Origin: Eledone cirrhosa
Lineage: Eukaryota
Direction: 5' to 3'
NCBI GenBank assembly: GCA_964016885.1
Contig: OZ024742.1
Coordinates: 72,416,001 to 72,480,000, forward strand
Length of the DNA stretch: 64,000 nt
Shown: piece after piece, positions 4,627 through 48,412 of the stretch
Position numbering within the stretch: position 1 is the stretch's first letter
Layout of the letters: each line of letters begins with the position of its first letter
Program-made: the position numbers and the translations under genes
The notes under the pieces: generated by a model
Databases searched by the model: none
Seen by the model: the letters and a program-made list of their open reading frames with translations, nothing else
What the model was told of the DNA's origin: nothing

Positions 4627-4755
4627 GAGATTAACTTGCTTGATATGTTTACCAATGACAACACTGCGACCAAAGGTCATGAGGTGCGATGATATCATTG
4701 TCCTGAGGAAATCCTCTTCGATACTGTGAGATGGACAGAGGATACTGTCATCAAC
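4627..4755 (-). CDS. C9orf72: C9orf72 homologue, coding exon 3
   Basis: Polypyrimidine CAG acceptor and GTAAGT donor; 129 nt, phase 0/0. Encodes VDDSILCPSHSIEEDFLRTMISSHLMTFGRSVVIGKHIKQVNL, cf. human AISSHLQTCGCSVVVGSSAEKVNK. Confidence 0.93.
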
Positions 4756-9676: not shown

Positions 9677-9778
9677 TTCGACTTCAGTTGGTAGCCTGGC
9701 TTCGCTCAAAGATAGCACCATCTCTGTAAACTGACATAAGTAAGATGTAAATACAGACAGAGCTTCAATTCGAGAATC
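9677..9778 (-). CDS. C9orf72: C9orf72 homologue, coding exon 2
   Basis: TCTTGCAG acceptor and GTATGT donor; 102 nt, phase 0/0, open. Encodes DSRIEALSVFTSYLCQFTEMVLSLSEARLPTEVE, cf. human MELLSSMKSHSVPEEID; joins the flanking exons in frame. Confidence 0.88.
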
Positions 9779-11735: not shown

Positions 11736-12305
11736 CTTTTCAAGAAGTACGCGTAGTTTACCAACCATTCGACTGATCCAACTGTAGATAAGATCAGAAA
11801 GATGGAGAAAATATTCCAGTTGGTCAAGCCGTATAATCAACGTGAGGCTGTGTAATGAAAGGCCATTGATACCATTAGCACTGAACACAAATACAACTGC
11901 TGCAACATTCTTGTCTGGAATGGTATGAATGCGCCAATCAGTGATGCTACTGCTTAGGTCTCGACACAGTTCTCCAGCCAAACCTTGCTTACAGATTTGC
12001 AGAAGGGTGGCTTGATCAAGTAGAAGAGCCTGACCATTAAACCACACCTGTTCAACACGAGGGCCAAGGATATTGTCCCAGTGACTAAACACAAACGTTG
12101 AGACCAGGATCTGTGCACTGTCTACGAGCTGTGACACTGTAAACTTGGAACAAGGACTCAGTAATGTAGCAGCAGTTGAGTCCTGTCCTTTGGATTGGTC
12201 AGTGGGGTAATGAAGATTTTGTGGAGGGGCTAAGTGAGAAGAATGTGAATGGTCCCGTTTTATTTTCATTATTGGAACGTAAGTGTCATTTTTATTAGTC
12301 TCCAT
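11736..12305 (-). CDS. C9orf72: C9orf72 homologue (DENN-like, longin region), first large coding exon
   Basis: 190 codons ending K|GTAAG. FSHWDNILGPRVEQVW...LAGELCR...RMVGKLRVLLEK matches human FAYWDNILGPRVRHIW...LNGEILR...RKGRIWMHK with the same exon end. The start ATG is uncertain: the frame is open 17 codons further upstream. Confidence 0.95.
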
Positions 12306-12571
12306 AGTAATGGATGAAGCAAATGGCGTTTTTTTCTTTAACAGTGGACATAAAATCTAATTTGTTATCAATAAGTTTATACTAAGTGGTCTAATTTTTA
12401 TCAGCATTTGAGTCCATTGTGTGTACATATATATATATATATATAGTAAGAGGGAGAGAGTACTTTATTAAATATTAAGTTGATTGTAACTTTTAGTTTA
12501 TGAAGACATAAATAACAAACTGACAAGACGGACAAAAAGGAAGTTGGATCTACAGAACAGAAAACCAACTT

Positions 12572-12838
12572 TCAAGACTGGAAGTAAATCATGGGCAATT
12601 CATTACGTACATGTAGGACTTGGACAATGTAGCTGGCCAGAAACATATTAGCTATAACAAAAGTTGCAGCTAAGAGCATCAGTGATGCTGACCAGGTGAT
12701 ATTTGGAGAGAGGTCCTGAGTTAGGTAGAGGAGAAAAATCATGAAACTCGCAACCACTACGAGCAAGAAAGCATAATTAACCAGCAAGATGATGACTTTG
12801 TCACGACTGACAACCTCTGTGATCCAGTCAACCTTCAT
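12572..12838 (-). CDS. Small two-TM membrane protein, VMA21-like (88 aa), upstream of C9orf72
   Basis: ATG at 12838 to TGA at 12572; two hydrophobic helices. VIILL..FLLVVV...QDLSPN..S..LAA...ANMFLASYIV resembles the VMA21 pattern (yeast QQFTPNTLISGGLAAAMANVVLIVYIV). A strong acceptor lies upstream at 12959-12960; the sequence is non-repetitive. Confidence 0.55.
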   Translation of the reverse strand: MKVDWITEVVSRDKVIILLVNYAFLLVVVASFMIFLLYLTQDLSPNITWSASLMLLAATFVIANMFLASYIVQVLHVRNELPMIYFQS

Positions 12839-13184
12839 TGGAACCTGATACTGACAGGGAAGGGATTGACTAAATATATGTGATGTCTCCTGATTTTCAG
12901 TACCATTCAACAATTGAGGTTCTCAGTCACAATTCCTTCATAACATCATGTGATAGAACTGGAAGAAAGCAAGAAAGAAATAACAGAAAAGATTTAATTT
13001 ATGATAAAGTTATGTGTGTGTGGGGGGGGGGGGGCATTTATACATATATATAGATAGATAGATTTAATTCTGAGTAAACCAAGGTTCTTAAATTAAATCC
13101 ATCTTTAATCTCAACAATTGTTTTTATACAGACGAGAGTCGTATAAATACACACAATGAACCTATCTGTTACAATTAATAATCA

Positions 13185-14010
13185 TTTACTAAATTTAGCC
13201 AAAACTAAAGTGCTAGTGAGTAGGACCCTGATTCCTCCAGGGAAGTGGCCCTGTTAAATATGTAGAAAAGGAGTAGGCATAAACTCCATATGATGTACAC
13301 AATGTAAATCTTGGGTACACAAGAGATATAGTGGGATAATGGGTAGACTAACAGGAAGGGAAGCCTTTGTATGAAGATGGCAGGAGTAATCGAGAGGAAG
13401 CATATCAGTGATATAAACCTTTTCCAGTCACAGGAAGGGCCCATAGAAGTGATTGATAGGTTCTATCTAGAAGATTTAAGTAGAAGAATTGGAGGACGGT
13501 GTGATGAGAGCATAATAACTAAAATAAGGATAGAGAGCTACTCCCACTGTTAACCACAAAAGGTTTCTCCCTACGTACAAAAGGACGACTATATGATGCC
13601 TGTGTGCAATATGCGATGTTGTATGATAGTGAGACATCGGCAGTGACTGCAGAAAACATGCGTAGACTGGAGAGAAACAAAGCAGCCATATGAAAGAAAG
13701 GCAGAGCTTGGATGAACTGAGGGAGAAACTAAGTTTAAGAGGAATCTGAGGTGGTGTGCAGGAGAGAAGACTGCATTGGTATGGGCATGAATGATGATTG
13801 ATGTATGAAGAAGTGCCAGGAAATGCCAGTGGAAGGAAGCTGCAGTAGAGGTAAACCAAAAAAGACCTGGGCAGAGGTGGTGAGAGCTGACCTCAAATTG
13901 CTGAGACTTACAGAGGAGAAGATGGAACACTGAGTGGAGAGATGCTATGCTGAGAAGGATCTGTCCAACCCATGCAAACATGGTAAAAATGGATTTAAAA
14001 CGATGATGAT
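13185..14010 (+). mobile_element. Decayed RTE LINE 3' fragment
   Basis: Remnants of LAKTKVL, PHD, RLYDACV and RRLHWYGH; (GAT)n tail. Confidence 0.8.
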
Positions 14011-14455
14011 AGTATTAATCTTCAAATGCATGTCATCTGGAGTCAGAAAGAAAGGGTTAATTTATCACATCAAACAGCAAGAATATAGGCAAACTGAAAG
14101 AACGCAGAGACGATAATCAAGCTTATAAATGGCATACAGAGTAAAGAAGTATTATTAAGCTTATGATGCACATAGTCATATAGATGATGATGATATATAT
14201 ATACATCTATATATATAGATCAAATGAAGCAACAGAATAAAGGACTCGCATTGTTCCCTGTAATATAATGGGCTCAAGGAAAATTTTCTGGGCTCTTCAA
14301 AATATATAGGAGAATACATGAAAAGAATATGTGTTTTTTCATTACAGGATGTATGTAACCACCAAAGTGAAAGGCATATAAACTGCAAAAGGTACAGGAA
14401 AAATATAATCAAACAGATTAATAAAATGGAAAACATACCTCCTATATATAAATAT

Positions 14456-16200
14456 CATCATCATCATCGCTTAACATCTACTTTCCATGTTTGCATAGGT
14501 TAGACAGCTGTCTCATGCTGAAGCCAGACCGGTCAGGTGACAAGGTCCTGCTAGTATGCTTTGTTTTGGCTTGATTTCTATGGCTGGATGCCCTTTCTAA
14601 CACCAACCATTTTACAGCGTACACGAGGAGCATTTTATCACGATTCTGGTACTATCACTTTACAGGGTGGACTGGGTGCTTTTGCCTTCACATTGTTTTT
14701 CTTTGCTTGAAAGGATCAAATGAATATTTTTCCAGTACATCTCCACTTCATTTGTTGCATTCTTTCATCTTCCTTGTGAGGTTCAGCATTTTGAGGTCAG
14801 CTCTAACCACTTCCACCCAGGTCTTCCTGTGCTGCAGCTTCTGACATTTTTTCCTCAATGATCATCATCTATGTGCATTATGAGTCCATGCCAATACAAT
14901 CTTTTCCTTTGCATACTACACCCAATTTTTCTCTCAACTCCGCCAGAATTTTACTTCTAACTCTTCTACATATTCAGCTAATTCATCATAATACAAGTTT
15001 CCATATGCAACTATATGGCTTGAAGAACAATGATAAACAGGAGGGAAATGAGGAATGAACCCTAATGGATGCCCACCTGCTCTCCAAATTCATCACTGTA
15101 CTCATTGCCAACACTCACCTTGCTGATTGTACTCTATACATGGCTTGTACTGCCTTCACAAGCCATCTAGCTACACGTAGCTTCATAAACACCCATCAGA
15201 TTATGGAGCAGAGAACTCTGTCAAAGGCCTTCTTCAGATTCACAAATGCTAGGAGTTAGAGGCATATTCTTAGCTAAGTACTTTTGCAGTTGTCCAACAA
15301 AGAGGGCATCAGTTGTACCCTTACCTGGCATAAAGTTGAACTGCCTCTCATTGACCTTAATTACATCCTTATTTAATTGTGTTATTACCCTTTCAATAAT
15401 TTTCATGACCTGATTTATTAATTTTATGCCTCTCTGGTGTGTCTTCTTTGCCCTTGTAGCAGTTTACAGGGACACTGCTGTAGCAGTCATAGAGTATGAC
15501 ACCATCCTGTATTACTTGATTGAGTATGCACATGACTAACATGTAACCAACCAGGTAAGATGTTTTTAGAATCTCAGCAACTATAACAGATGGTCCAGCT
15601 GCTTTCCTTAACTTCATATCCTTAATCACTTTGTCTATCATACTGCATTGGATCTACATGGGGTAGGCCCACACTCTCCCTTTTAATTCTCTTTGTTCAA
15701 CAATCTCTCATAATAGGAATTCCATGCCTCTTTCTTCTTAGCATCAGTCAAGAATATGTGCTCCACTATCATTCCTATAACACTTTTCCCCAACAATGTC
15801 TCAATTTTTTCTAACACACTGTCCCATTTCATACCTTTGATCTTTGCATCATAGAACACAACCCAAACTTTTTCCTTTTTGCTTCTCTCCTCATTACGTA
15901 CAAGTGATACCTAGCCTCTTTGCTAGCTATTTAGTAGTATACGCTGCTCGCTTATTTCTTTCTAGTCTTTCCAAGCCTGTCTCTTTTCTTTTATGGCTCT
16001 GTCTACCCTATCATTCCAGCACTACATCACTCCTCATATAGTTGGCCCTTTGATCTAGTCACAAACCTTGTCTGTAACCATAAGAAGTTTGTAGGAATTC
16101 ATAATTTTGCTCCATGTTATAGGTCTCCATCTCCTCTTATATTTGGTCGTAGGTGTAAAGTAAGACTTATCTGAATATGCTCCCAGTTCTTTCAGTTCCA
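14456..16200 (-). mobile_element. Decayed RTE LINE and RTE-tail fragments
   Basis: ORFs 15393-15641 (KAAGPSVIVAEILK..CYKGK) and 15221-15406 (FMPGKGTTDALF). Confidence 0.8.
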
Positions 16201-18340
16201 TGTCTTTCTTCTCCAGATTTTGCATCCACTTTTCCAAGTTAGCATGGGTTGAACAGGTCTTTTCTAGCATGTGTGTGTGTATATGAATATGCATGTATGT
16301 ATATATATGTAAATATATATAGATATGGGTAACATTTAGGTCCTCCCTCGCCTCTCCCAGTGTACTGCCAGATATCATTCACTCTCTTGAAGGCCATGCC
16401 CTATAACCCATCACCACCACGGGCTTTCCCAGCTTGGCTGATGACACACTGTGTGACCTTACTATTGTAAAGGGGTCGTGTTGGTGCCATGATAAAATGC
16501 GCCCAGTCTATTCTATACAATGGTGGTGCTGGTGCCACAATAAAACACACACTGTAAAGTGGTTGATATTAGCAAGAGCATCCAGTCATAGAAACTATCC
16601 TAAAATGGAATGTATGAGCAAGGCATGGTCATCTGACCTATCAAATCTCCCAACTTGACAACCCATCTAACCATGTCAGTATGGAAAATAGATGTAAAAC
16701 AGTGATGATGATGATACACACACAATTTTATTTCCTTATTACATTAAATATGTGAGCACTAAATTAATTATAGCTTTTTCACGCAGATGGTGTGTAAGAG
16801 TAATCTATTCTTTGAATTCTTCTAGTTTTCTGCGTCTACAAATTAGTATTTTTATGACCATTAATTTAGCAAGTGCCGTGAAGGCTGTAATTCGCTGAGG
16901 GAGTTTAATAAATTCGAAACACGCCCAGAGTTATCTCCTAAACTCAAAATAATATTATTCAACGTTTAAATTTTTTGTTTGTTTTTTCTTCACATCAGAA
17001 TTATTTTTAATTTACATGTGCATACCAAATAAACTACACACAGCTGCACTAATGTACACATACATACATATATAACCTCTCTCACACCAACAAGATTCTT
17101 TTTATTTATGAGCGGTGGATTGACAGAATTGATAGAGCGTCGGACAAAATGCCATGTGATATTCCTTCCGTCTTTACGTTCCGAGTTCAAATCCCGCCAA
17201 GTTCAACTCATCATTGATGAAGTAAAGTACCAGTCGAGTACTATGGGTCGATATAATTACTGGCCTTGTACCTAGAGGCAGTACTAACAACTGTTGTAGA
17301 CCCTTATGAATTTGATATGAGCTTTGTATGTTTGAAATGGAGTTCGAAAATTAATATTGTCGATATTAATATAATTATGTGATAGGTTGACTTTGCCTTT
17401 CATCCTTACGGGGTCGATAAAATAAAGTACCAGTAATGCACTGGGTATTTGCTGGCCTTGTGCCTAAAGTAGAAACAAGTATAACTTAGAATAGTAATGT
17501 ATAATACAGTACGGTAACGTAATAGAGTTCAACATAGTGTGGTAATGTAGAATGTATAGTAAATAGTACGAAGAAAGTCTAAATACAAAATGGAACACAC
17601 TCTGGGGTAAAATATGCGGTTGCATATCCTTTCCAACAGTGCAACAAGTGTGTACATTTGTGTTGCGATAAAAATGGGAGAGATACAAATAGAAGTTGTC
17701 GTTTAGTCCTAAGTCTGCCCCGATACAGAAGACTTGTTATCATCAAAGGTATCCCAAACTGACTAATCCAGTTTTGACAACCGATCGAAATTATATAAAG
17801 TGAAAGTGGACCCCTATATTCAAGGATTAAAAAACAATCTATTTAACACGACATTTATACAACGTGTTTATTCTGATGTTCGCGCTGATGTTTGGTTAGT
17901 GAGAGATGTTTGGTTAGTAGCTCTAGCGGGTAGAGCTACGTTGGGTTGAAGAGTAGATGTAGAAAGGACGTTTTAAAAAAAGGAAGGGGTAAGAAGGGAA
18001 AGAAAAAAATAGTTAATGACAGAGTGTTAGGTGTGCGATAGGTATACAGGAAAGAGGTGAGGAGGAAGAGATGAGGAGGAAGAGGTGAAAGCTAGTGACA
18101 TCGAGGGTGACAGAGATGCAAACAAATAGTTGAGAATGAGGGGGGGGGGGGTGAAAGATAAAACAGGGAGAAATGAAGAGATGAGAGATAAAGCGAATGA
18201 ACTCTCAATTATGTTATTGAGTGTGTAAGCGAAACACAATTAGAGAGGATGCGACAAACATAGAACAGCGAGTGAAAGCTGATAGAAAGAAATAATGAGC
18301 GTGGTCTGACTTGAGACAGAAAATACTGAATGAACCTTAC

Positions 18341-18545
18341 CTGAAGATAAACACTGGCGTGTCCATTGGTGAAAGAAGCTGTCTGAATTACTTCTCTGTT
18401 TTCTATAATGTATCGAGCAGGCATGTGACCCACAGAACAACCTAATATGAAAAGCAGGCGAAATGGTGAAAAAGAATGAGAGAAAGGTGTGCACATGAAA
18501 CTAAAGGTCTTGATTGAGTAGTGCCTGGTGGACACAAGTTGCTTT
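18341..18545 (-). other. Probable first (leader) exon of the C9orf72 transcript
   Basis: Strong donor CAG|GTAAGG at 18341/18340; unique CpG-containing sequence immediately downstream of an ETS motif; TSS not determinable. Confidence 0.6.
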
Positions 18546-18590
18546 GATCGTCACTTCCGGTCCGGTCTCGTTTTCCTCTGACCTGTAACA
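18545..18590. promoter_or_regulatory. Candidate bidirectional promoter (ETS/GABP motif and TOP-like pyrimidine tract)
   Basis: CACTTCCGG at 18552-18560 followed by CTCGTTTTCCTCT on +. Outward-facing splice donors at 18340 (-) and 18834 (+, GCG|GTAAGT). Confidence 0.55.
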
Positions 18591-36997: not shown

Positions 36998-37292
36998 ATG
37001 GCAGCCATTGAAAGAATGCGAAATTCCAACGATTCCATATCACAAATCGCCTCCGTACTTCGTGATCAGAACCAACCGCTGACAGAACGATTTCGTGCTT
37101 TGTTCACTCTTCGCAACCTTGGTGGAAAGAAAGCCATTAATGCAATTGCAGGTACTTTCACTGATTCTTCGGCACTATTGAAACATGAACTGGCTTACTG
37201 TCTTGGTCAAATGCAGGACGATTACGCTGTTTCGATCCTTACAGAAGTACTGGAAGATGAAAATCAAGAAATAATTGTGCGGCACGAAGCAG
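36998..37292 (+). CDS. DOHH: Deoxyhypusine hydroxylase, coding exon 1
   Basis: RFRALFTLRNLGG...DSSALLKHELAYCLGQM...VRHEAG (HEAT repeats with HE iron-binding motifs); phase-1 donor G|GTGAG at 37293. Confidence 0.96.
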
Positions 37293-37384
37293 GTGAGCTT
37301 TTATCCTATTGCCCCTATGCCCACTTTTAAAACTAAAAAAAAAAACAAAAAAAAAAAAAAACAACAAAAAAAACCCTGAGAAAA

Positions 37385-44488: not shown

Positions 44489-47400
44489 ATCATCATCATC
44501 ATCATCATCAACGTTTAACGTCCGTGTTCCACGCTTGCATGGGTTTGGACGGGGGTAGTCCCACTTGAGGCAAGAGTGATTTGTCTTGCTCGCATAGGAC
44601 TGTCTGGCAGGTTTTCTACAGTTGGATGCCCTTCCTAACACCAACCACATTTACAGTGTGGGTCTGGGAGGTTTTTACCGTGTTGCCTACACGGCCACAT
44701 TACAGCGTGGACTGTGTGTTTTTTTGTCGTGACACCTACACGATCTCATTTGTTTCGGCCTGGATGGCGCGGCACCAACATAACTTTACATAGAACGGGG
44801 TGGTGTGGATGGGGTGGGGGTGGCGGCGGGAGGGGTGTATTTTGTTAGAGATGCCTACTGGCAAGGCGGGTCTTCTCTGTTACTGAGTACCGCCAAAGGT
44901 CACGGTCCAGTGACATTGTCTTGGAGAGGTGTAAGTGTGTGAGGTCGGAGTTTATCAGCTCGTCCCATGTTTTTCTAGGTCTGCCTATTCCGTGGCTACC
45001 GTCTATCTTTATTGCCCTGCACTTTGTAATACAGCTATCGACTTTCATGCGCATCACGTGTCCATACCAACGCAGCCTTCTCTCGAGTAAACAACATCTG
45101 ATCCCTCTTATCTCTAATATTTTCCTTAGTTCGTTTATGCTTTGCCGTTCACGTATATTACTGTTACACATCCAGCGGAGCATGCAAGCTTCGTTCCTCT
45201 CTAGTCTGCGTATATCCTCTGCACACAATGCCCAGGTCTCACTACCATGCAACATTGCTGTTCGTATGCAGGCATCGTACAACCTGCCTTTCATTTTTAG
45301 GGAGAACCCTTTAGCAGCTAATAGTGGTATAAGCTCTCTGAACTTTTTCCAACCAGTTCTGACTCTAGCTACAGTACTTTCAGAGCACCCTCCCCCACTG
45401 CTGATTTTATCGCCCAGGTAACGGAAGCTGTCCACTATTTCTATAAAACCCTCTGCGCAATTGAAAGAGCTAGTATTTTGTGGGCACTTGCTGCTACTTA
45501 TTGCACCAGAACACCGGCCACATGTAAAGTCTATGTTCTTAGTTAGCTTACCTGTGATCCCACTACATCTTTTATGCACCCATACTTTGCATTTAGGACA
45601 TAAGATGGAGTTTCTACCTACGCCTTTCCTACATACCGAGCACGACCATTTCCCAGAAGGGACCGCCGCCTTGTTTTCTTTCCTACAAACTAGAACTTTG
45701 GTCTTAGCCAGGTTAATTTTAAGTCCTTTTGACTCTAGGCCGTGCTTCCATGTTTGGAATTTCTTCTCTAGCTCGGCCATTGATTCCGCTATGAGTGTCA
45801 GGTCGTCTGCGTATAGGAGTTCCCATGGGCAGCCTGTCTTGAACTCCTCTGTTATAGCCTGAAGGGCAATAATAAATAGTAGGGGGCTGAGAACAGAGCC
45901 CTGATGGACGCCAACTTTTACGCTAAACTCTTCACTATATTCGTTGTTAATTCTAACCTTGCTGACTGTTTCTTTATACATGGCTTGTATAGCCCTCACA
46001 AGCCATTCGTCAACGCCTAGTTTTCTAAGAGCCCACCAGATAATGGAGCGGGGGACTCTGTCGAAGGCTTTCTCCAGGTCGACAAAAGCTAAGTAGAGGG
46101 GTTTACCTTTAGCTAGGTACTTCTCCTGTAGTTGTCGTACTATGAAAAGAGCGTCTGTGGTGCTTTTGCCTGACACAAACCCGAACTGCATTTCATCTAG
46201 ATCAATTCTCTCTCTGATTAGTTGCGCTATTACTTTTTCCGTGACCTTCATGACCTGGTCGATTAATTTAATGCCTCTATAGTTACTCCTATCTAGGGCG
46301 TCTCCTTTACCCTTATAACAGTTAACGATGATGCTGCTATGCCAGTCCTTCGGAACAACCCCATTCTGTACGACTTGGTTAACTATGCGGGTGACCATGG
46401 TGTGTCCCACCGTGCCAGATGCCTTCAGCATCTCAGCAACTATTTCCGAAGGCCCAGCCGCCTTACCAGTCTTCATATCCTTGATTGCCTTACTTATTAT
46501 ACTCCCCTCGACTAACACTGCTGGTCCCTCTATCGGGTCGATATGGGGGAGACTGTCTTTCTCCCATTTATTCTCCTCATTTAGTAGCCTTTCATAGTGA
46601 CACTTCCAAGCTACCTTCTTATCAGTGTCGGTGATGGCAAGTATGCCATCATCGTTAAGTACACACTTCTCCCCGACAATATCACGGTTTTCCTTGACGC
46701 ATTGCCTGGCAATCCTGAACACCTCACGTTTTTGGTCATCGCGTTGTAGAACATGCTTGAACTTTCTTTCCTCAGCTTCCCTTCTTGCTAAGTACACTTC
46801 TCTCCTAGCTTCCCTCCTGGCCACTTGATAGTCTACTCTACTTCCCCCGTCCCGCCATACTTTCCAAGCCTGCTTTTTGGCCTTAATTGACCCCTCCACC
46901 TTACTGTTCCACCACCATGTTACTCTCCTCCTGCCTACAGGCCTGCTCCAGCCACAGACTTCGTCTGTCGCCAACAGCAGGTTAGCTTTCAGAAATTTCC
47001 ACTGTCCCTCTATATTGTCCGATTCTAGATGCTCTTCCTTACTGTCGAAAGCATCAAGTAATATGCTTTGAAATTTATTTCTGGCTGTGGGGTCTTTTAG
47101 TTTCCATATTTTCCTCCTGAGGATAGTCCTCTTCTGCTGTCGGGTGCGTCTCGTCCTGACTATGAGGTCGCTAATTATCAGTCTATGTTGGGAGGTGCAT
47201 TCTTCATGGGGGAGGGATTTAGTGTTTACAACAGACACTCTGTCACGTCTTCTGGTAAGGATATAATCTACCTGGCTTGTGTGTTCCCCGGATCTATAGG
47301 TAATCAGGTGATTGTCACGTTTTTTGAAGTTAGTGTTACAGATAGTTAGGTTATTTGCATCACAGTATTCCAGAATTCTGGAGCCTTCCTCATTTCTAGT

Positions 47401-48412
47401 ACCAAACCCATAGCCTCCATGGATTTCGTCATAGCCGTCACAATGTTGTCCAACGTGACCATTTAGGTCGCCTGCAATAATTATATAGTCACTGTCAGAT
47501 ATTTGGGAGGTAGTTAGCAACAGTGTCTCATAGAATCTGTCTTTTATAGTGCCGGGCAGTCCGGATTGGGGTGCGTACGCAGATATTACTGTCACCGTAG
47601 TTCTATTGAGGACAAGTCTTATTTTAATTATTCTGTCGTTCACTCTATTTACGTCTATTATCTTATCTGCCCACTTTTCTGCTACCATGATTCCTACTCC
47701 ACCCAGCCCATCGTCGTTTCCCACCCAGAAAAGCTTATAACATCGTTTTTTACCCTCAATGAATCTAGCAGACCCACCCCTCCACCTGGTCTCTTGAATA
47801 CAACAAACATCGACCTCCTTACGTTCAAGCATTTCTACAACCTCGTTAGCGCGACCCTTTAGGGTGCCTACATTTATGGTACCAACTCTGAAGTTTTGGG
47901 TTGCGTTTGGAGGGTGGGGGTGGTGGGGGGCGGGAGGAGATAGGGTTATGTTAGCCATCCGCGGACGAAACAAAGAGGAGTGCTCGCATTCTCGTCCACG
48001 AGGTGAATTTGACTTTAACTTTGGCATTTTCGCTCTGGGCGTCCAGATTTTTCTCTCCCTTCCACTCTCCAAGGATTCCGCAGTCCGTCCGTCCGTCCAT
48101 CCATCCATCCATCATATATCGAAGGCAACCGGGCAAGCGATAGTATAGGCCTCTGGCTTATGATTTGGTCCGCGTAATAATAATAATGGTGATGCGTGGG
48201 GGTGGGGGTGGGTGGCTCTGGCTTATAATAATGGTGGTGATGGGGGGGGGGGCTCTGGCTTATGATTGGTCCACGTATTAAGTATGGTGGCGTGTGGGGG
48301 CGGGAGGGAGGGGTGTGGGGTAGCTAGCTGGAAGGTTATGAATGTTTAACAAGCGATTTAACAAAAAGCAAAACTGCAAGATTTGTTCTGTTCAATACGA
48401 CAAAAACACCGT
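44489..48412 (-). mobile_element. Full-length, apparently intact RTE LINE in DOHH intron 1 (antisense)
   Basis: Single 1087-codon ORF, 3' UTR with (GAT)n tail at 44489-44510, 5' UTR with tandem repeats, flanked by AT microsatellite. Confidence 0.95.
44845..48108 (-). CDS. RTE polyprotein: APE endonuclease + reverse transcriptase with inserted PHD finger
   Basis: APE motifs GTINVGTL, IQETRW, GDLNGH, VDYIL, SQHRL; RT motifs DLEKAFD, GVHQGSVLSP, YADD, YLG; C4HC3 CSVC..CPKC..H..C..CGRC. The true start may be a downstream Met, since the first codons derive from a (GGAT)n repeat. Confidence 0.95.
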   Translation of the reverse strand: MDGWTDGRTAESLESGRERKIWTPRAKMPKLKSNSPRGRECEHSSLFRPRMANITLSPPAPHHPHPPNATQNFRVGTINVGTLKGRANEVVEMLERKEVDVCCIQETRWRGGSARFIEGKKRCYKLFWVGNDDGLGGVGIMVAEKWADKIIDVNRVNDRIIKIRLVLNRTTVTVISAYAPQSGLPGTIKDRFYETLLLTTSQISDSDYIIIAGDLNGHVGQHCDGYDEIHGGYGFGTRNEEGSRILEYCDANNLTICNTNFKKRDNHLITYRSGEHTSQVDYILTRRRDRVSVVNTKSLPHEECTSQHRLIISDLIVRTRRTRQQKRTILRRKIWKLKDPTARNKFQSILLDAFDSKEEHLESDNIEGQWKFLKANLLLATDEVCGWSRPVGRRRVTWWWNSKVEGSIKAKKQAWKVWRDGGSRVDYQVARREARREVYLARREAEERKFKHVLQRDDQKREVFRIARQCVKENRDIVGEKCVLNDDGILAITDTDKKVAWKCHYERLLNEENKWEKDSLPHIDPIEGPAVLVEGSIISKAIKDMKTGKAAGPSEIVAEMLKASGTVGHTMVTRIVNQVVQNGVVPKDWHSSIIVNCYKGKGDALDRSNYRGIKLIDQVMKVTEKVIAQLIRERIDLDEMQFGFVSGKSTTDALFIVRQLQEKYLAKGKPLYLAFVDLEKAFDRVPRSIIWWALRKLGVDEWLVRAIQAMYKETVSKVRINNEYSEEFSVKVGVHQGSVLSPLLFIIALQAITEEFKTGCPWELLYADDLTLIAESMAELEKKFQTWKHGLESKGLKINLAKTKVLVCRKENKAAVPSGKWSCSVCRKGVGRNSILCPKCKVWVHKRCSGITGKLTKNIDFTCGRCSGAISSSKCPQNTSSFNCAEGFIEIVDSFRYLGDKISSGGGCSESTVARVRTGWKKFRELIPLLAAKGFSLKMKGRLYDACIRTAMLHGSETWALCAEDIRRLERNEACMLRWMCNSNIRERQSINELRKILEIRGIRCCLLERRLRWYGHVMRMKVDSCITKCRAIKIDGSHGIGRPRKTWDELINSDLTHLHLSKTMSLDRDLWRYSVTEKTRLASRHL

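Follow-up and report, generated by a model that had tools for sequence, protein, structure and literature searches.

In the octopod Eledone cirrhosa, the exon in which C9orf72 begins also holds, ahead of that start, an intact 88-codon open reading frame (ORF) for a small protein with two predicted membrane helices. Its homologues mark this ORF as a conserved protein gene; the family, which spans molluscs and annelids, is undescribed. In our preferred reading, to which we assign a probability of roughly 60%, the locus yields a bicistronic C9orf72 mRNA from which a conserved 88-aa hairpin microprotein is made and C9orf72 is translated at a low rate. An earlier note on this DNA had left the choice between a bicistronic or translated-uORF locus and a splice-switched one. 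The former is the best reading because the conserved two-helix microprotein lies in the C9orf72 start exon; the switch has so far found no support.

The DNA analysed, here called the window, is a stretch of 64,000 nucleotides from contig OZ024742.1 (assembly GCA_964016885.1), and all positions count from its first letter. According to the ORF list of the window, the frame runs on the minus strand from the ATG at 12838 to the TGA at 12572, and 266 nt separate its stop from the C9orf72 ATG at 12305. The earlier note had described an intact 88-codon frame with two hydrophobic helices at this place, about 265 nt before C9orf72, together with a donor at 18340 and acceptors at 12959-60 and 12550-51; the frame, the distance and all three splice signals were confirmed. 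In the 88-aa product, hydropathy (Kyte-Doolittle, 19 residues) peaks at 2.68 and 1.78 in two hydrophobic stretches, and in a search of the genome the DNA of the ORF matched only itself. The leader is laid out as follows.

18341 to 18512, minus strand: leader exon 1, equal to letters 1-172 of the X4 contig described below; its 5' limit is the contig start, with no mapped start site
18340, minus strand: donor of exon 1 (CAG/GTAAGG)
12959 to 18340, minus strand: intron 1, 5382 nt, GT..AG, containing repeats; skipped by the X4 contig
12960 to 12959, minus strand: acceptor AG of exon 2, from the sequence; used in the X4 contig
11736 to 12958, minus strand: exon 2, 1223 nt, made up of 120 nt of leader, the microprotein ORF, the 266-nt spacer and the first 190 C9orf72 codons; unbroken in the X4 contig
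12835 to 12906, minus strand: 23-codon uORF that ends on the microprotein start, its TGA and that ATG forming ATGA, from the sequence
12851 to 12852, minus strand: candidate acceptor 13 nt ahead of the ORF start, from the sequence; no use in X4
12572 to 12838, minus strand: microprotein ORF (88 aa) from an undescribed family of molluscs and annelids with two predicted transmembrane helices (ORF, homologue search, profile)
12550 to 12551, minus strand: candidate skipping acceptor 21 nt past the ORF stop, from the sequence; no use in X4
12306 to 12571, minus strand: spacer between the ORFs, 28% G+C, with five ATGs, an AATAAA at 12469-12464 and a (TA)n run, from the sequence
11735 to 11734, minus strand: donor GT of exon 2, from the sequence

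The spacer showed no unusual RNA fold (z 0.14). It contains a G>A difference at 12328 in contigs of runs X2 and X3, and none of the differences listed for the contigs of these runs falls inside the ORF. About 40 nt upstream of the 5' end of the X4 contig, at 18554-18562 on the minus strand, stands CCGGAAGTG, which we take to be an ETS-type housekeeping promoter motif.

The region is present in four sequencing runs, none of which is on record as RNA. In run X4, letters 1-172 of a 2374-nt contig equal positions 18512-18341 and letters 173-1396 equal positions 12958-11735, with zero differences. We took this contig as RNA because it skips a GT..AG intron; the contigs of run X1, unlike it, extend beyond the exon borders into the introns. 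With the junction 18341>12958, a single exon contains the complete ORF together with the C9orf72 start. The approximately 980 letters left over fit the remaining coding length of C9orf72 (approximately 921). Since the ORF DNA and C9orf72 each occur once in the genome, a retrocopy does not explain the contig. Both ORFs thus stand in the same spliced exon chain, as seen in one contig from one sample, from which single molecules are not resolvable.

Besides the 18341>12958 junction, the earlier note had predicted 18341>12850 and 18341>12549, and it had suggested that splicing from the donor at 18340 to 12958 gives a microprotein mRNA and to 12549 a C9orf72 mRNA, one protein per isoform. Only the first junction was found. 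The contigs of X4, the one spliced run (one sample, assembled, with rare forms dropped and loose-end tables truncated), contained neither of the others, and its depth is flat at 25.4 across 11756-12931, equal to that of the single contig, so there is no second contig using the 12850 or 12549 acceptor. The acceptor at 12550, plausible as it is at 21 nt past the ORF stop, failed the 74%-pyrimidine filter, whereas that at 12959 passed with 95%. Skipping the ORF would lower the number of upstream ATGs from 20 to 8. A minor isoform that skips the ORF and was dropped from the contigs is possible, yet we give little credence to a switch as the explanation of the locus.

Assembly can also merge two overlapping transcripts. 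The microprotein mRNA would then end at the AATAAA in the spacer (12469), C9orf72 would start at a different 5' exon or at an internal promoter, and a merge or read-through would account for the contig. Single molecules are not visible in contigs, and the 20 upstream ATGs would make translation of C9orf72 from the long leader hard. However, 641 of 2000 shuffled spacers also contain an AATAAA, and the contig crosses the spacer without a break, with no second contig on the exon. We regard two monocistronic transcripts as unlikely and keep to the bicistronic reading.

The downstream gene was identified by protein similarity. Its first 190 codons match a human C9orf72 chain in the PDB (6lt0_C, E 1.5e-12), and residues 50-190 are 96% identical to C9orf72 of Octopus sinensis and 94% to that of Argonauta hians. 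Three coding parts lie in the window and four further exons to the left of it, and the seven matching exons were found at one genome site.

11736 to 12305, minus strand: first coding stretch of C9orf72, 190 codons, with its ATG in a strong context (-3 A, +4 G); matches to PDB and cephalopod proteins
9677 to 9778, minus strand: second coding exon of C9orf72 (tblastn; borders predicted from splice signals)
4627 to 4755, minus strand: third coding exon of C9orf72 (tblastn; borders predicted from splice signals)

The conserved core of cephalopod C9orf72 is preceded by a variable N-terminus of about 50 residues (12156-12305, minus strand), whose length and start are kept among the cephalopod-type sequences aligned. 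Isoform X2 of O. sinensis C9orf72 (P0005) is without approximately 41 residues found in the others, equal to one skipped exon. Elsewhere in the window, an intact ORF of 1087 aa (44845-48108, minus strand) reads like what we take to be a LINE endonuclease/reverse-transcriptase protein, and many fragments of similar elements are spread across the window. An exon with HEAT_PBS repeats (36998-37330, plus strand; Pfam E 1.9e-7) is presumably the start of a deoxyhypusine hydroxylase.

The relatives of the microprotein are distant, and the method of search mattered. A word-index protein search returned one relative only, the 97% identical twin of another octopod. Of seven matches that phmmer gave at E<=0.001 among 1.84 billion proteins, two (P0021 and P0025) were tandem-repeat proteins and were removed as artefacts. 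The other five are the octopod twin and four distant, full-length relatives (E 1.3e-9 to 9.2e-4). The four distant clusters comprise 21 sequences, of which four carry species names, all as 'hypothetical' proteins: those of the snails Nucella lapillus (KAL8582203.1) and Littorina saxatilis (KAK7100967.1) and of the tubeworms Lamellibrachia satsuma (KAI0214392.1) and Ridgeia piscesae (KAK2175532.1). Octopods and tubeworms separated more than 500 million years ago. The earlier note had asked for conservation of the ORF in other molluscs; full-length protein relatives exist in gastropods and, in addition, in annelids, and the alignment of 23 rows shows nine invariant positions (L18, N21, Y22, F24, S44, A57, F60, A68 and V72).

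Within clades the protein is well kept, with 85/88 identities in the octopod pair, 78/85 between Nucella and Littorina and 96/101 between Lamellibrachia and Ridgeia (92-97%), and between the ORF and the other clusters identity ranges from 22/86 to 31/85. Scored with a profile built from the 21 non-octopod rows, the ORF reaches 70.4 bits; of 1000 segment-wise shuffles that keep the two-helix layout, the best reaches 23.9. As the rows are sequences picked as matches of the ORF, this score controls for composition bias and is not an independent test. When the family profile was run on 1173 open frames from the window, the ORF alone was significant (E 1.3e-20). The position of an M-x-x-D-W start is common to most snail relatives and to most relatives without a species name. 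Immediately ahead of residue 9, four entries of the snail cluster part from the named snail proteins, and from this we infer that in snails an intron appears to interrupt the ORF. In the family tree no deep branch is supported, which leaves the clusters without species names unplaced. No longer fused form was found among 180 candidates, which is weak evidence. No annotated Octopus or Argonauta copy turned up in the protein searches; this would fit concealment of the ORF in what is annotated as a '5' UTR'.

These relatives also bear on whether the ORF might have arisen by chance or be a uORF with a regulatory role only, its peptide being irrelevant. When the 825-nt spliced leader was shuffled with its dinucleotides kept, an ATG-initiated ORF of at least 88 aa arose in 200 of 5000 shuffles, and one that in addition had two hydrophobic segments in 23 of 5000. 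In the ESM Atlas nothing was found at >=0.9, and the recognition scores were low (1927 and 1966). The existence of homologues settles the question of chance: full-length gastropod and annelid proteins with nine invariant positions, as aligned, largely refute this reading already, and we consider it scarcely credible.

The earlier note had seen in the ORF a resemblance to VMA21, a suggestion that did not survive. VMA21 binds the V0 c-ring and is required to assemble the V-ATPase. None of the 23 family members reached E<=1 against the VMA21 profile PF09446, so the profile search for which it had called gave no match, and most of the residues that it had cited as a VMA21-like motif (P45, N46, A58, N64 and I71) vary across the microprotein family. 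The genome has a separate, canonical VMA21: PF09446 found it on contig C2 (65.3 bits) and had no match at the microprotein locus. This gene (G000:C2:128869947-128870135; L004:1462-1752, minus strand) encodes 97 aa, looks single-exon and ends in XKXD. Compared with it, the microprotein family gave an hhalign probability of 0.1% and the family profile -2.0 bits; BLASTP of the ORF gave E 15, and its local score of 24 was reached in 990 of 1000 shuffles.

VMA21 is described as a hairpin with both termini in the cytosol, with the retrieval signal KKXX in yeast and plants and XKXD in animals (PMC13142848, in the part available), and human VMA21 is described as being without the dilysine of yeast (PMC7483274, likewise in part). 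Lack of a dilysine alone would not exclude VMA21, since the animal protein ends in XKXD; the genome's own VMA21 carries that ER retrieval end, and none of the ten microprotein family members listed does. Yeast Vma21p was compared via the Pfam profile and the PDB searches, the latter being a weak comparison in which even the octopod VMA21 reaches the yeast chain at only E 0.37. Against Vma21p as solved in V0 assembly complexes, Foldseek and VIA-align returned generic hairpins only.

Possibly, the microprotein could still be a divergent second assembly factor of the VMA21 type for the V-ATPase. Like VMA21, it belongs to a size class of about 80-100 aa and would form a helical hairpin with both ends cytosolic, features predicted for the microprotein and common in small membrane proteins. 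In contrast to VMA21, it shows no sequence or profile match in any of its 23 members, no KKXX or XKXD end in the ten listed, and an invariant N21-Y22-x-F24. We judge a second VMA21-type factor to be very improbable, and as far as these comparisons reach, the microprotein is not VMA21 itself.

What the protein may look like was approached by prediction. Both of two AlphaFold models are two-helix hairpins (mean pLDDT 77.5 and 69.9), and the helices are placed as follows.

12722 to 12796, minus strand: predicted transmembrane helix 1 (about residues 15-39), with invariant L18, N21, Y22 and F24 (hydropathy, AlphaFold, alignment)
12614 to 12691, minus strand: predicted transmembrane helix 2 (about residues 50-75), with invariant A57, F60, A68 and V72 (hydropathy, AlphaFold, alignment)

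Both ends are predicted to be cytosolic because basic residues flank the two helices and none occurs in the loop, which is short and uncharged to acidic. Pfam gave weak unrelated matches only for the ORF and all 23 members (best E 0.034), the PDB no match by sequence at E<=10 and one designed protein by profile (E 0.82). Foldseek gave no match at E<=0.001 for either model and VIA-align generic hairpins only (best Z 10.2), so that no function was indicated by the fold and family searches. TMEM243 / DUF2678 (PF10856) is likewise a small hydrophobic animal protein of similar size; as a lead it was rejected, since it matched neither the locus nor the family members nor the family profile, and the genome's own member lies on contig C15.

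How C9orf72 is reached by ribosomes is the difficult point of the bicistronic reading. The leader contains 20 ATGs before the C9orf72 ATG (12 in weak, 7 in adequate and 1 in strong context), and there is no ATG depletion (7, 7 and 5 observed versus 4.5, 4.0 and 3.6 expected). The start context is weak at the ORF and strong at C9orf72. From the sequence, this order is what leaky scanning would want, but 20 ATGs fit simple leaky scanning badly. The ATGA overlap of the 23-codon uORF with the ORF start is of the kind that serves reinitiation in viral RNAs, where, according to the part of PMC10275272 available, a structured element is also required.

Green-algal bicistronic loci offer a comparison. 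There too, ORF1 is a small membrane protein (TOM22, OST4), and a stronger upstream AUG lowers the output of ORF2, as described in the accessible part of PMC11892635. Set beside these leaky-scanning loci, the octopod locus has a weak start context at ORF1 and a strong one at ORF2. The algal leaders described there are short, with few upstream AUGs, whereas in the octopod 292 nt with 7 ATGs precede ORF1 and 12 more ATGs follow from its start to ORF2.

A possible mechanism is that ribosomes pass the short uORFs and then reach the weak-context ATG of the microprotein, and that C9orf72 would be translated from its strong-context ATG at a low rate by leaky scanning combined with reinitiation. The microprotein, inserted as a helical hairpin with both ends in the cytosol as predicted, could present its invariant polar N21-Y22 and the small and aromatic residues of helix 2 as a binding surface inside the membrane, and may bind a partner there via N21-Y22-x-F24. 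It would serve a membrane complex of the secretory or endolysosomal system as a small accessory subunit.

Whether the two genes are linked outside Eledone was examined in several collections. In a second octopod, P0002, which is the ORF protein, has the same contig record (3 contigs, longest 1792) as P0011, a protein of the C9orf72 exon that continues into the intron, and these identical records suggest that this octopod probably has the same layout. Assuming that it does, the ORF (85/88) is better kept than the N-terminal 50 residues of C9orf72 (39/50, p 0.0009) and not significantly better than its core (133/140, p 0.74). In metagenomes, a profile scan for C9orf72 confirmed none of 110 stretches; a pattern scan returned 8 loci, of which 4 are true C9orf72, all non-cephalopod. 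The family profile found nothing upstream of these 4. In three of them the sequence ahead of the conserved motif measures only 500-1117 nt, and the fourth is vertebrate-like with approximately 2700 nt; the result is limited also because the snail ORF appears to be intron-split.

One invertebrate-associated metagenome contig carries an intronless C9orf72 of 475 aa (L009:365-1792, minus strand), and a second copy of it (L010) differs by a 300-nt insertion upstream. The two have in common a 63-codon upstream ORF whose C-terminal end resembled that of the microprotein, but the family profile did not match it, and it was discarded. Scans of prokaryote genomes and viral contigs confirmed 0/188 and 0/599 stretches. 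The locus tags ACOMHN_004122 (Nucella), V1264_023826 (Littorina), LSAT2_000519 (Lamellibrachia) and NP493_723g00000 (Ridgeia) were not found in the literature, and neither these tags nor C9orf72 occurred in the searched supplements of PMC10291997, PMC12506669 and PMC11050657. It could be proposed that an ancient bicistron extends across molluscs and annelids, the microprotein serving the C9orf72-SMCR8 complex specifically, as its partner or anchor in the membrane; at present we hold this to be quite doubtful.

Conserved microproteins encoded ahead of another gene have precedents in animals, and one of the host genes, SMCR7L, is the same as MIEF1. The bicistronic mRNAs with a conserved 5' microprotein named in the part of PMC4705651 available are those of AltSMCR7L (MIEF1), AltSLC35A4, uMKKS1/2, SNURF/SNRPN, RPP14/HTD2 and CERS1/GDF1; there, some of the pairs interact and others are not known to. 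As in these cases, a conserved short ORF lies in a leader exon just before the start of an unrelated main gene and in the same mature mRNA. The octopod case, known from sequence and one contig, differs in the unrelated protein, the other host gene and the ATG-rich leader. Hence the layout is of a known kind, and the microprotein family is undescribed in the libraries searched and without a Pfam entry. No report of such an ORF in the leader of C9orf72 was found among the titles and abstract openings searched.

The family thus reaches from octopods to tubeworms under the label 'hypothetical protein' only, and it offers a small membrane protein that can be tested. At the locus itself, a further question is by what route ribosomes come to translate C9orf72 with 20 ATGs ahead of it. 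If the linkage fails outside octopods, the outcome is a correction of annotation and a new microprotein family; if it holds and the two proteins cooperate, the microprotein would be a new component of C9orf72 biology. Should it indeed be a partner of C9orf72-SMCR8, an unsuspected component of the pathway of an ALS/FTD gene would have been concealed in the 5' leader.
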